A DNA stretch of 51,403 nucleotides from Candidatus Saccharimonadia bacterium (GCA_044449985.1 JBIOIQ010000006.1:1-51403), one strand, 5' to 3'; positions 37,149-43,096 are shown, counted from the stretch's first letter. Notes: a model not told the origin generated them from the sequence alone. Numbers and translations: made by a program.

Positions 37149-38006
37149 ATGACGAAGCTGCAAAGAAGAATTCTTTCCAACTTGCAGATAGCCGAGCTAA
37201 TTAAGTTTAGCCTGGTGGCTTTGTGGTTACTGATCTGGTTCGTTCCGATTGGTACTTTTGCCGATACCCTGCTTTCCCAGGGCTATCAATCGAGCTCTCA
37301 ACTTGCGATCGGTTCGATTGTCAGCCTCGATAGTAATGTCACCGGTACTATTAGCGCTGCAAATACGGGAAATGTTGATAGTTTAATCGGGGTTGTTGTT
37401 GGCGCAAATAATACTCCACTTACGCTCACGAATGGCAGTAGTAATCAGGTCCAGGTGGCCACGAGCGGGGTGGTCAATGTTCTGGTATCAGATATTAGCG
37501 GCACGATTGTGACAGGTGATCCTGTGACCGCCTCACCTATAGACGGAGTCGGTATGAAAGCGACTTCAAATATTAAGGTGATTGGTGTTGCCCAAGGCGA
37601 TCTTGCAACGAGCGTCGGCAAAACTACCCAAACGTTCACGGATCAAAATGGGCAGAAACAGCAGGCACAACTTGGGGTCATTCCGGTACTTGTTAACGTT
37701 GCCTATTACTTTAAGCAGCCCTCGAAGACTTTAATTCCGAACGTTATCCAAAATATTGCTAACACCATTGCAAATAGAGTAGTTTCGCCGCTGCCAATTT
37801 TAGTAAGTTTGGGTATTTTTCTCGTCACGGTTATCAGCATTATGATTTTAATTTATGCCGCTATTCGGAGCAGTATTATTTCTGTTGGTAGAAACCCGTT
37901 GTCCCAAGCAGCGGTATATCGAAGTTTGCTGCAAGTTAGCGCACTCGTGTTATCGATCGTTGGAGTTGCGATTGGAACCATTTATCTAATTTTAACGAAG
38001 CTATGA
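37149..38006 (+). CDS. Membrane protein: signal/TM, extracellular beta domain, and C-terminal ATP-synthase c-subunit-like hairpin without carboxylate
   Basis: C-terminal helix-ISVGRNPLS-helix with no D/E in either helix; first gene of the F1-like operon. Confidence 0.6.
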   Translation: MTKLQRRILSNLQIAELIKFSLVALWLLIWFVPIGTFADTLLSQGYQSSSQLAIGSIVSLDSNVTGTISAANTGNVDSLIGVVVGANNTPLTLTNGSSNQVQVATSGVVNVLVSDISGTIVTGDPVTASPIDGVGMKATSNIKVIGVAQGDLATSVGKTTQTFTDQNGQKQQAQLGVIPVLVNVAYYFKQPSKTLIPNVIQNIANTIANRVVSPLPILVSLGIFLVTVISIMILIYAAIRSSIISVGRNPLSQAAVYRSLLQVSALVLSIVGVAIGTIYLILTKL

Positions 38007-38635
38007 TGTTACCTTTAATCATCGAAGTTGCCATAACGATTGCTAGTTTCTTCCTGGGGTTTTTAGTTGCGGAAATCTATCAATGGTTACGCATAAGGTC
38101 AAATCGAAGAAATGTCCCAATCCAAGTTGTTCCGTCGCAGCCCATTGTGCAAACGAATCTTGACGTAGCCTTGCCCGAGGGATTTAAAGAAAAATTACAA
38201 TCACAGACTCAAGCAGATTATTCCGAAGCTCTTAAAGCTTCGGCTCAACGTTTCATCGATGAGCTTCAGTCTACCTCAGAGCTTCTAAATGGACAGATTA
38301 AAAATCTTGCGACCGGTATTATTGGAAATGAACTTGAGCAGTATCAGAGTGAACTTGCCCAAGCTAGGGCTCAAGCTATATCTGATCTTGGACAGCTTCA
38401 AACGGCGATCAACGAGCAAAAATCAAAGATGGAAGCAGATCTGATGGAAGAAATTAAATCTCAGAAGCAGTTAATGTTATCCCAAATCGACACTAAACTC
38501 GGCGATGCTGTTGGATCTTTTCTGGTTGAAACCTTGCAACATAACGTAGATCTCGGTGCCCAAAATACCTATATTATGGCAATGCTTGAAGAACATAAAG
38601 CTGAGTTAAAAAGAGAACTTAACGATGAAGTATAA
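38003..38635 (+). CDS. Peripheral-stalk b-subunit-like protein
   Basis: N-terminal TM followed by a long Q/E/L-rich coiled coil; sits before the delta-like gene. Confidence 0.55.
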   Translation: MMLPLIIEVAITIASFFLGFLVAEIYQWLRIRSNRRNVPIQVVPSQPIVQTNLDVALPEGFKEKLQSQTQADYSEALKASAQRFIDELQSTSELLNGQIKNLATGIIGNELEQYQSELAQARAQAISDLGQLQTAINEQKSKMEADLMEEIKSQKQLMLSQIDTKLGDAVGSFLVETLQHNVDLGAQNTYIMAMLEEHKAELKRELNDEV

Positions 38636-39107
38636 ACTTCCAGACTCGCTTTATACTCCCCAGAGTATTCATCAAGTGCTCGCCGAACTTGTAGCCCAAA
38701 GGGTCTGGATGCAACACGAGCAGATTAAAACTCAAGTCATCGGAAGTTCGGGAGAATTAAGCACTACACCTGTTGTATCCAAATGGACGAGCGAACTTAT
38801 CAAGGTTAATAATTTATCAACACCTGAAGCAATCGATGAAATAAGTGCAGAACTAACGACGCTACTTGATAAAGCACCTCGCATTCATTTCACATTCGCT
38901 GCGCCGCCACTCGAACTAACTAAAATTCGTTTTGTCGATTGGGTTCGGACTGAACTTCATCCAAATGCTCTGGTTGAGTTTGACTTCTACTCAGGAATTT
39001 TAGGAGGAGTTGTAGTACGAACAGGTAGTCATACTTTGGACTGGTCTTTTCGAATGCAACTGTTAGCTGCTCGGGGAAGATTTGCAGAGGTGCTTCGAAA
39101 TGTTTGA
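38625..39107 (+). CDS. F1 delta-like subunit (divergent)
   Basis: C-terminal ILGGVVVRTGSHTLDWSFRMQL matches the delta/OSCP pattern. Confidence 0.75.
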   Translation: MKYKLPDSLYTPQSIHQVLAELVAQRVWMQHEQIKTQVIGSSGELSTTPVVSKWTSELIKVNNLSTPEAIDEISAELTTLLDKAPRIHFTFAAPPLELTKIRFVDWVRTELHPNALVEFDFYSGILGGVVVRTGSHTLDWSFRMQLLAARGRFAEVLRNV

Positions 39108-40596: not shown

Positions 40597-41440
40597 CGCT
40601 ATTCAAATTCAACTCGATGAAATTATCACGATCGAAGAGTTGACCGATGTCTTCGAAAGTCTTTCTAGTACTCAAATTGCAAAGATCAAAGACAAGGTAG
40701 AATTGTCGACGAAATTTTTTGAACGACTTTGGCAAGTTTACAGCGCGTTGAGAGTAGATCCAACATCTCAAATGACATATGTCCGTCCGATATCTGAGGG
40801 TAAAAATCAGGTTTTCGTTATGATAACTGCTGAAAGTGGCTTAAACGGGGATATTGATGATCGTTTAATAAATGCTGTTCTCAATGATTTTAAGCCTGAA
40901 GAAACCGATATCATTTGCATAGGTCAGCATGGTGCCGGTCAGCTGAGACAACGTCGTATCAAGTACACTAACTATTTTGCAGTCCCAGTCAGCGAAAATT
41001 ATGTCGATGTCAGTCCTATCCTAGAAGCGGTTGCACCCTATCCGGAAATTACAGTTTATTACGAGTCTTATGCATCCCTTGGGAAACAGGAAATCAAAAA
41101 AATAAACCTAATTTCAAGCGTCCGAGAAATGAGTGCTGACGTGGATCCGGATAAGCAGTTGATCACAGGTGCTGATACAGTTTTTGAACCATCACTCGAT
41201 GTAATTGTTGATCAAATGGAAATTACTATGGTTGGGCTTGCTTTATCCCAAGTAATTTTAATGTCGAGTTTAGCTCAATATGCATCACGTTTTAACGCCA
41301 TGGTTCTTGCTAAACGCAGGGCACTAGAAATGTTACTTGATTATCGGCTCGATTATTACCGTGCAAAACGCTATGAAAATGATAAACGTTTGCGGGAAAT
41401 GTTGGTTGGAGTTAAAAAGAAACGACGGGCGAGAAAATGA
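40583..41440 (+). CDS. atpG: F1-like ATPase gamma subunit (divergent)
   Basis: N- and C-terminal coiled helices, [20 protein letters not shown]; lies between alpha and beta. Confidence 0.82.
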
Positions 41441-42846
41441 ATCAACCAACTATAGTCGGAACGATTGTTGGCATAAAGGGCTTAATGGTCGAAGTCAACA
41501 TCACTGGTGAATTGCCAAAAATTAAAGAGCTTTTACTCGTTGAAGGACTTTCGGATTTGATTCTTCAAGTTAATTATTATTCAAAAGGTTTGGCGATTTG
41601 TCTGAATCTCTTGAATAGACAAGAAGTTGCTTGTGGTATGAAAGTGTCAGCAACTGGACATGCCATCACAGTACCGGTAGGAGCAGCTACGTTAGGAAGA
41701 GTATTTAACTCCCTTGGTGAACCCCTGGATGAGGGTGAACCCATAACAGAGAATCGAAAGGATATTTATCGGCCATCTGGTGTGCATGGATTGGTGGGTG
41801 GACCAACTTCGGAACTTCTAGATACCGGCGTCAAGGTGATAGATTTTTTAACACCATTTGTGAAAGGTAGAAAGATCGGGATTATCGGGGGAGCCGGCGT
41901 TGGTAAAACCATTCTGACAATGGAGCTAATTCATAACGTTACCCAGGACAAACGAAGTCTCTCGATCTTTTGCGGAATTGGTGAACGTATCCGGGAGGGC
42001 AACGAATTGTATGAAACTTTGAAGGCAACTGATGTTTTAAAGAATACCGTTATGTTTTTTGGACAAATGGATGCGACACCGGCACTTCGTTCGTTGGTCG
42101 GGCCAGCGGCAGCAACTGTTGCGGAGCATTTTCGAGACCAAGAAAAACGCGACATCCTATTTTTTGTAGATAACATATATCGTCACATTCAAGCTGTGAA
42201 CGAACTTTCAATAAATCTTGGTTTGACACCTTCCGAAGGTGGGTACCCGGCGACCATGTTTACTGAACTGCGTCGACTTGAAGACAGACTAAGTTCTACT
42301 CCAAACGGTTCAATTACGTCAGTACAAGCTGTCTTTATTCCAGCGGATGACTTATCTGATCCAGCCGTACAAGCTATTCAACAACAACTTGACTCTGTTA
42401 TCGTCTTATCCCGCGCTGTCGCAGAAAGTGGAATCCGACCTTCAGTCGATTTGTTGCGAACAAATTCTTCGTTGCTTGCTCCAGAAGTGGTTGGCGAAAG
42501 GCATTATGAACTCGCGGGAAAAGTGCAGGAAATAATGCAGAAACACGAATCACTGAAGAACATTATTGCTATTGTTGGAGAGAACGAATTATCTCCGGCA
42601 GACTTGGCGGACTATAAAAAAGCCAAGAAATTAATCGAATTTTTCTCTCAAGACTTTGCAGTGGCTGAACATTTGACTGGGAAAAAAGGACAGTATTTTA
42701 CTCGAGAGGAAACCCTCGTCGGTATTGAGCAAATCTTAAATCAAAGCACAACCAACGAGGTTCAGTCAGCGGTCGCACAGGAGTTTAGCACCGATAGTGG
42801 TGCTAAAGAAGAGAACAATTCAAACGCGAACAATAATGGCAAGTAA
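41437..42846 (+). CDS. atpD: F1-like ATPase beta subunit (divergent)
   Basis: [31 protein letters not shown]. Confidence 0.9.
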
Positions 42847-43096
42847 AGAAGAAGCGGTCCTAACTGTACGTGCCAGCTCGCCCTTTAAGGTCTTCTATGA
42901 GGGAAATGCCACAGCCGTATCCGCAGTTAATAAAGTTGGTCCATTCGATGTTTTGCCAGGTCATTCCGCTTTTTTCTCGGTCCTTGAATCCGGCGAAATA
43001 ATTATTGATACCGGCAGTGAAACAGTTTCATTTGATATTAGTAACGGCATTATTTCGGTCAGAAATAATATTGTCGAACTTTTTGCCAATATTTAG
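42836..43096 (+). CDS. atpC: F1 epsilon-like subunit, N-terminal beta-sandwich only
   Basis: [26 protein letters not shown]; 86 aa with no C-terminal helical hairpin. Confidence 0.78.

Follow-up and report, generated by a model that had tools for sequence, protein, structure and literature searches.

A conserved F1-like ATPase operon of Patescibacteria without subunit a, in which an ectodomain is fused to a carboxylate-free c-like hairpin: a candidate surface-directed machine

We analyzed a 51,403-nt stretch of DNA (hereafter, the window) from the genome of Candidatus Saccharimonadia bacterium GCA_044449985.1 (G000 in our set; 692 kb, 18 contigs, 76% complete), in which positions 37149 to 43096 of the plus strand code for a divergent F-type ATPase. 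Its seven open reading frames (ORFs) overlap or abut each other in the order of an atp operon (c-b-delta-alpha-gamma-beta-epsilon), and both the ORF map and the profile searches agree with the initial annotation that no a-subunit gene accompanies them. The products are homologs of the corresponding ATP synthase subunits, with subunit a and the carboxylate of subunit c lost, and the operon is a paralog of the canonical enzyme, widely conserved in the phylum and syntenic with genes for surface proteins. What has been kept is the machinery that produces and holds torque (alpha3beta3 with gamma and epsilon, the b and delta subunits, and the loop by which the rotor contacts gamma and epsilon), what has been lost are the parts that couple it to ions, and what has been gained is an outward-facing ectodomain. 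Judging from these sequences, we lean slightly toward a role in which ATP would drive the rotation or stroke of an oligomer of the first gene product, moving its ectodomains against partners on the cell surface; hydrolysis, the ring, the rotation, and the target are all predicted.

Gene 1 is a fusion of an ectodomain and a c-like hairpin

The first gene had been described as c-like, which holds for its C-terminal hairpin, homologous to subunit c, but the protein is not a small c subunit. It is a 285-aa fusion of a signal/transmembrane (TM) segment, an ectodomain, and the hairpin. The AF2 (AlphaFold2) model, built from a 45-sequence alignment (predicted local distance difference test [pLDDT], 87.5; predicted template modeling score [pTM], 0.63), shows a helix at residues 2 to 31, a beta-rich domain at approximately residues 42 to 188, a short helix, and the two helices of the hairpin (214 to 248 and 250 to 284). 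In Foldseek searches the beta-rich domain matched phage capsid decoration proteins and a C-terminal fragment of phi29 gp12 (E values from 6e-5 to 5e-4), and the hairpin matched the c subunit of the Mycobacterium tuberculosis ATP synthase over 82 columns (template modeling score of 0.76 by target, 20% identity).

Profile comparisons gave the same assignment for the hairpin. When 16 hairpins from several classes were aligned with hhalign to 16 canonical c subunits, the match reached 95% (E value of 3.5e-8, 82 columns), versus 0.6% for subunit b and 0.2% for reversed c as controls. A hidden Markov model of canonical c subunits directly matched gene-1-like proteins of other classes (E values from 5e-6 to 6.5e-3 among the ORFs searched), and the weak PF00137 matches seen in two genomes (G347 and G258) lie inside gene-1-like ORFs. 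The loop between the two helices reads V-G-R-N-P; G-R-N-P is invariant in 125/125 close relatives and R-N-P in all 16 hairpins, and the canonical c subunits of the same class have the loop A-[VI]-G-R-N-P-E. The column of the Escherichia coli carboxylate D61 is occupied by L268 in gene 1, and over the two sets aspartate or glutamate is found at this position in 16/16 canonical c subunits versus 0/16 hairpins. A polar residue is conserved 12 to 13 positions past the loop proline, as Q262 in 125/125 relatives and mostly as asparagine in other classes.

The ectodomain module (window positions 37272 to 37712, residues ~42 to 188) is not confined to this protein, as giant surface proteins of Patescibacteria (1000 to 11716 aa) also contain it, often in several copies. 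In the Protein Atlas, gene 1 fell only into clusters of "hypothetical protein", and it had no match in NCBIfam at an E value of ≤0.1.

Subunit a and the ion path

In the whole 692-kb assembly (76% complete), PF00119 (subunit a) had no match at an E value of ≤1, and PF00137 (subunit c) had none either. For a more sensitive search, a profile was made from 12 canonical a subunits and run against ORFs of at least 70 aa, chosen greedily, in window positions 30001 to 51403 and against ORFs of at least 60 aa in the 80 nearest related loci, which come from species-representative genomes and are all Saccharibacteria-type metagenome assemblies. At an E value of ≤10 the profile matched nothing in any of these ORFs nor in those of the other variant loci, while the true a subunit of the sister genome G061, used as the positive control, was recovered at 2.9e-104. 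There is no conserved gene upstream of gene 1 among the variant loci. In five operon-bearing genomes of other classes, 99 to 100% complete and one of them closed, neither atpB (0/5) nor atpE (0/5) was found over the cutoff. As neither an a subunit nor a c carboxylate was found, the uncoupling from ion flux that was proposed at the outset is the natural inference.

Stalk, head, and epsilon subunits

Four of the seven products are recognized by Pfam/NCBIfam, namely, alpha, gamma, beta, and the N-terminal domain of epsilon. For genes 2 and 3, single-sequence searches gave no more than weak matches (for gene 2, with a TM helix at residues 5 to 23, to subunit B and V-type subunit E in NCBIfam), and the two were assigned by aligning 16 homologs of each and comparing them by hhalign with 12 canonical b and 12 canonical delta subunits. 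Gene 2 matched b at 92.5% (E value of 5e-7, 84 columns) and gene 3 matched delta at 97.4% (E value of 1.5e-11, 83 columns); the crossed controls gave 0.1 to 0.2%.

All the catalytic motifs quoted in the initial annotation (GGAGVGKT and GER in beta, SRVGG in alpha) are present in the translations. Alpha also keeps a P-loop, GDSKSGKS, together with its arginine finger, and its N-terminal helix is about 10 to 13 residues shorter than the canonical one; the DELSEED region of beta reads NELSPAD. In 17/17 variants beta contains GxxGxGKT and GER and alpha contains (S/T)RVG. Epsilon lacks the C-terminal helical domain, with variant epsilons measuring 79 to 124 aa versus 133 to 151 aa in canonical Patescibacteria enzymes. 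In canonical enzymes this domain inhibits hydrolysis. With the catalytic motifs intact and the inhibitory domain gone, the sequences look like those of an active enzyme.

The strong divergence reported for the subunits was confirmed, since alpha (396.9 bits in TIGR00962; cutoff, 484.45), beta (431.1 bits in TIGR01039; cutoff, 462.85), and gamma (67.3 bits in TIGR01146; cutoff, 194.45) all fall below the equivalog cutoffs. The canonical alpha and beta of G061 reached 735.7 and 773.1 bits. In one genome of another class (G145), the variant beta passes the TIGR01039 cutoff at 508.7 bits.

A paralog of the canonical ATP synthase

Only one other genome belongs to this family, namely, G061, a single contig that is 98% complete. 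It codes for three alpha/beta sets: a canonical atpBEFHAGDC operon and orthologs of two variant operons, both of which are present in our genome. The second variant operon of our genome has the same seven-gene build and is on contig C8 (locus L005, 6723 to 12983). Its beta gene (L005, 11344 to 12651) is broken by one in-frame TAA at approximately L005 12187 to 12189, with the G061 ortholog (L023) being intact. Next to the C8 operon, on the same strand, we also noted a gene for a large TM-anchored surface protein that runs off the contig. Three other closed genomes (G030, G044, and G018) each contain a canonical set plus one variant of the gene-1 build. Since the closed genome G061 carries the canonical operon along with both variants, this is a distinct paralogous F-type ATPase and not the ordinary synthase in a divergent form.

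A further closed genome, G077, has the canonical set and a different Fo-less cluster without gene 1 (L027, G077:C1:97000-112000). It codes for b-like, OSCP/delta, alpha, gamma, beta, and short epsilon products, with no gene 1, a, or c. Immediately upstream of it lie genes for an fn3-rich protein of 859 aa and for a MacB-type ABC transporter (ABC_tran plus FtsX/MacB_PCD). The alpha and beta of this cluster are long-branched sisters of the canonical clade.

A tree of alpha and beta (57 sequences, IQ-TREE quick search, LG+C20+F+G4) placed the variants outside the canonical clade. The canonical alpha (12 sequences) and beta (11 sequences), each including E. coli, formed clades with a support of 99 that excluded all 16 gene-1-linked variants, and the eight variants of the group to which the window belongs formed a clade with a support of 100 among the alpha as well as among the beta sequences. 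In the approximately unbiased (AU) test, one common origin for all 16 of the variants was not rejected (p-AU of 0.34). A recent duplication within the class, with its variants joined to its canonical alpha, was rejected (p-AU of 6.4e-5).

The second, canonical operon whose search had been suggested was found in the sister genome; the 76%-complete assembly itself yielded none, only the second variant on C8. The situation that would have spoken for an ordinary enzyme, a sole F1 set with a normal atpB and atpE elsewhere and with alpha and beta inside the canonical clade, is not what these genomes contain.

Distribution across the phylum

Among 121 genomes of the class, 43 code for atpB and a full-length gene 1, 33 for gene 1 only, 14 for atpB only, and 31 for neither. 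Several near-complete genomes (96 to 100% complete), in which neither atpB nor atpE was found over the cutoff, have variant sets alone. The variant-only genomes include five atpB-negative ones of the class (96 to 100% complete), with variant-type alpha and beta only; seven of their nine full sets are beside a listed gene-1 match, the two without being those of G019 (contigs C19 and C40).

In a sample of 301 genomes of the phylum, the gene 1 profile matched 110, many of them by the ectodomain module only, in the giant surface proteins mentioned above. In 16 genomes outside the class the match spans ectodomain and hairpin, in ORFs of 258 to 378 aa. Nine of 10 such loci have the gene-1-like ORF followed by proteins of ~200 to 266 aa and 143 to 175 aa and then by alpha, gamma, and beta. 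Epsilon was detected in eight of these nine, in two cases on the opposite strand (ORFs 14314 to 14586 of L031 and 2405 to 2713 of L033, from G383 and G317, which belong to one family). The 0.5-Mb, 100%-complete genome G145 has no PF00006 matches other than the two of its variant.

Some arrangements depart from this build. Judging by coordinates only, gene 1 seems to be followed straight by alpha, with no room for b-like and delta-like genes, at G003:C10:84322-88345 and G039:C1:711596-715707; both genomes hold two variant sets, and the arrangement is found in one set of each. In L030 (G273:C5:45000-63000), ORF 8601 to 9575 is a gene-1-like protein (ectodomain plus G-R-N-P hairpin) that stands alone with no ATPase genes nearby, and G273 has five PF00006 matches elsewhere.

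Genomic neighborhood

Table 1 lists the features of the operon and its surroundings. Of the 60 related loci with enough sequence, 59 have the same order of the seven genes, and the convergent gene after epsilon, coding for a 357-aa protein, is present in 53/53 loci that extend that far and in L022 to L025. In this protein an N-terminal tail of ~60 aa in the cytoplasm is followed by one TM helix and, outside the cell, by a repeat or beta-helix-like region, with a weak bactofilin-like match at residues 133 to 219. A homolog of the 238-aa secreted protein was reached in 46 of the 80 related loci. The tandem paralogs behind it are 61 to 81% identical to one another and have homologs in L022, L024, and L025, so that the 238-aa protein and the 345-aa family are syntenic in three families. 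The 345-aa family has no Pfam match; in the Protein Atlas, the nearest named clusters to the 345-aa protein are WxL at 0.77, which we take only as a lead.

TABLE 1 Features of the variant operon and its neighborhood (window coordinates)
Feature	Position	Strand	Description
Gene 1 (285 aa)	37149..38006	+	Signal/TM helix, beta-rich ectodomain, short helix, C-terminal c-like hairpin
Gene 1 hairpin (residues 214-284)	37788-38003	+	Subunit c homolog without ion-binding carboxylate
Gene 2 (210 aa), b-like peripheral-stalk subunit	38003..38635	+	One N-terminal TM helix, long helical region; hhalign
Gene 3 (160 aa), delta (OSCP)-like	38625..39107	+	C-terminal domain recognizable; hhalign, weak PF00213
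Alpha-like (504 aa from first start)	39082..40596	+	PF00006, 5.5e-65; alignment suggests start at 39100
Gamma-like (308 aa from first start)	40514..41440	+	PF00231, 9.3e-26; ATG at 40583 is the likelier start
Beta-like, catalytic (469 aa)	41437..42846	+	PF00006, 5.2e-64; P-loop GGAGVGKT, GER
Epsilon-like (99 aa or less)	42797..43096	+	Beta-sandwich N-domain only; PF02823, 1.2e-12, residues 23-98
Convergent TM-anchored surface protein (357 aa)	43097..44170	-	TM at residues 63-81
Secreted protein (238 aa), syntenic with the operon	44280..44996	+	Homologs in equivalent positions in L022, L024, L025; no Pfam match
Three tandem paralogs (345, 345, 360 aa), secreted family	45160..48567	+	C-terminal domain in common with the 238-aa protein
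Promoter-like site, TTGAAA-16-TATAAT	36935..36962	+	~190 nt upstream of gene 1; 11/12 matches; lead only

Epsilon and the convergent gene end in stop codons that are directly adjacent (43096/43097, zero spacer), which means that their transcripts necessarily either overlap or terminate within the opposite gene. Between the promoter-like site and gene 1 there is a 10-bp stem (AAGAGAGAGC ... GCTCTCTCTT) followed by a T run (37037 to 37064), which may serve to terminate transcription from upstream or as an element of the leader. The region contains 13 promoter-like sites versus 14.6 in shuffled sequences, and the counts of promoters plus terminators were not above those of the shuffles. Farther upstream, at 35651 to 36742, are the gene for a secreted DUF1775 (YcnI-like) protein that has a TM helix at its C terminus and, on the opposite strand, the gene for a 186-aa signal-peptide protein, the two overlapping at their 3' ends; a DUF2127 membrane protein is encoded at 34639 to 35169.

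Comparison with known systems

(i) Canonical F1Fo. The variant shares with the canonical atpBEFHAGDC operon the order of the genes from c to epsilon, seven homologous products, and the catalytic residues. It differs in having no a, in a c that is fused to a signal peptide and a ~150-aa ectodomain and lacks the carboxylate and the glycine motif, in the missing C-terminal domain of epsilon, in a shorter alpha N terminus, in alpha and beta that fall outside the canonical clade and below the cutoffs, and in its presence in genomes that also carry a true canonical operon. A plain divergent ATP synthase is ruled out by the paralogy, the tree, and the missing a and carboxylate.

(ii) N-ATPase. Like the N-ATPase, the variant can be a second F-type set beside the main one, as is found in some prokaryotes. 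The genes of the N-ATPase (atpDCQRBEFAG) come in a different order and include those for subunit a and for a c that binds ions. This candidate was rejected by the scores of alpha (359.3 versus a cutoff of 750.5 in TIGR03324), beta (402.3 versus 752 in TIGR03305), gamma (19 versus 282.35 in TIGR03323), and epsilon (16.7 versus 100.1 in TIGR03166) and by the absence of a.

(iii) Mycoplasma F1-like ATPases. The kinship with the mycoplasma Type 2 and Type 3 systems that the initial annotation had brought up was not supported, as the NCBIfam scores are far below the cutoffs and lower than those for canonical F1, and b and delta are kept. For Type 3, alpha scored 237.8 versus 520 (NF045936) and beta 375.0 versus 570 (NF045934); for the Type 2 G1-ATPase, alpha scored 307.1 versus 600 (NF045863) and beta 320.7 versus 850 (NF045858). 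The Type 2 beta has an extra N-terminal domain, whereas the variant beta, of 469 aa, has no extension, and in the PDB the latter matched the Mycoplasma mobile G1 beta (9io5_A) at 284 bits versus 337 to 380 bits for canonical F1 beta chains. The sections of PMC12994834 on the gene clusters give the Type 3 order as 12TM-small-gamma-epsilon-(SP+2TM)-alpha-beta, with no b or delta among the genes listed there, call the Type 3 F1-like X0 enzyme specific to mycoplasmas, and include in both types a protein with a signal peptide (SP), an outside domain, and two C-terminal TM helices. Gene 1 has the same topology as the last of these. Both cases involve an extra seven-gene F1-like set, with no recognizable Fo ion path and linked to the surface, in host-dependent bacteria with small genomes. 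Unlike Type 3, with its 12-TM and small cytoplasmic proteins, the variant has neither the 12-TM protein nor that order, and it keeps b and delta. The resemblance is one of principle.

(iv) Export ATPases. FliI/SctN models reached at best 193 to 214 bits versus cutoffs of 379.5 to 620, and the presence of separate alpha and beta along with gamma and epsilon also rejects this assignment.

We found no description of such a system in the literature, including that on Saccharibacteria or Patescibacteria in combination with F1-like enzymes or c-rings, a search that did not extend to the supplementary subunit tables of the papers. In the parts of the surveys that deal with them, the F-type sets of Patescibacteria are treated as ATP synthases (PMC11665869, PMC12592800, PMC11659515, PMC10633639), and the ProAD database, in the portion of its description concerned with subunit c, labels c subunits without Glu or Asp "non-catalytic" (PMC11738941).

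Possible function and alternatives

In an ATP-driven machine of the kind we lean toward, an alpha3beta3 head with gamma and the short epsilon would hydrolyze ATP while being held by a peripheral stalk of the b-like and delta-like subunits, and the foot formed by gamma and epsilon would dock on the cytoplasmic G-R-N-P loops of a gene-1 oligomer. With no a and no protonatable rotor site, the energy of ATP could not be converted into an ion gradient; it would instead cross the membrane as torque or as a conformational stroke, reach a ring of ectodomains, and act there on surface structures. In Saccharimonadia the partners at the surface are probably the 357-aa TM-anchored protein and the secreted 238/345-aa family. 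Since the stator is kept, unlike in the mycoplasma systems, true rotation would be more plausible here.

Several observations weigh against this reading. The homology of the hairpin with c rests on profile methods and the loop motif, because single-sequence Pfam scans found PF00137 in 0/16 hairpins. The GxGxGxG motif by which canonical c subunits pack is missing from helix 1 of the hairpin, so the stoichiometry, and even the formation of a ring, may differ. The polar Q262/N lies about 1.5 turns from the old carboxylate site, leaving room for an unconventional ion site. The groups used in the AU tests were named after inspection of the tree, which comes from a quick search and has long branches in play. 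Our genome is 76% complete and the genes flanking the canonical operon of G061 have no tblastn match in it, so that a canonical operon may be hidden in the part that is not assembled. Since the comparison used samples of related genomes, the counts are not independent. Last, the idea that the motor serves the adjacent surface-fiber genes, which was part of the initial annotation, agrees with the conserved synteny in Saccharimonadia (the 53/53 and 46 loci given above) but does not extend further, as the neighbors are different in other classes.

Among the other explanations, we consider it quite improbable that the complex is still an ion-translocating ATPase or synthase, with an unconventional rotor site and an unrecognized replacement for a. 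A whole F1 with b and delta in canonical order, the conserved Q/N in helix 2 of the hairpin, and the fact that in some genomes these are the only alpha/beta sets, as would fit a housekeeping role, are what such an enzyme would lead one to expect, but there is no a-like ORF in the 80 related loci, the variant loci, or the five near-complete genomes, no hairpin of the 16 has an acidic residue at the rotor site, no conserved gene precedes gene 1, and closed genomes have a complete canonical operon alongside. An engine for export or assembly in the style of the FliI-FliJ ATPase of type III export, feeding or inserting the neighboring secreted and surface proteins with the gene-1 oligomer as platform or pore, is unlikely too, though less so. 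The tight synteny with secreted proteins would suit it, as would the matches of alpha and beta to FliI/SctN models, lower in score as these are, and the resemblance of the ectodomain to phage decoration and tail-fiber assembly domains. A heterohexamer with gamma, epsilon, b, and delta is, however, a rotary architecture and not a homohexameric export ATPase; the secreted neighbors have ordinary N-terminal signal-like hydrophobic stretches, and they are not conserved outside the class, while the operon is.

It seems to us very improbable that this duplicate of the ATP synthase operon is decaying or without function. The stop codon in the C8 beta gene and the scores of the subunits, below all the curated cutoffs, point in that direction, but the catalytic motifs are intact in all 17 variants, the loop of the hairpin does not vary between classes, all but one of the 60 related loci have the seven genes in this order, nine of 10 loci of other families of the phylum have the same build, and genomes of 0.5 Mb retain the operon without the canonical enzyme.

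The surface-directed motor could also be part of a much larger picture, one that is more speculative and that we rate as possible though on the whole doubtful. It would be an ancient, phylum-wide motor of the Patescibacteria, in which F1 spins a carboxylate-free c-ring bearing ectodomains, a rotating surface crown that could work as a winch, cam, or gear on fibers or adhesins for epibiotic attachment to hosts or movement on them. As part of the same doubtful picture, much of the "ATP synthase" scored in Patescibacteria without respiration would be a surface machine and not a bioenergetic enzyme, and the two-TM surface proteins found in the F1-like X0 systems of mycoplasmas could be a further case of this invention.

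Implications

All components of the predicted synthase are given as dispensable in a cultured Saccharibacterium in the part of a genetic study that covers them (PMC10633639). If many of the sets of Patescibacteria are the a-less form with a carboxylate-free c, part of the puzzle over their ATP synthase goes away, and metabolic reconstructions in which a module is scored as a "nearly complete F-type ATPase" would need revision. The operon also extends the idea of an F1-like, Fo-less enzyme to a second, unrelated lineage of tiny host-dependent bacteria. If our reading is true, this would be a new surface-directed rotary or force-transmitting machine, testable in the few Saccharibacteria that are cultured and genetically tractable.

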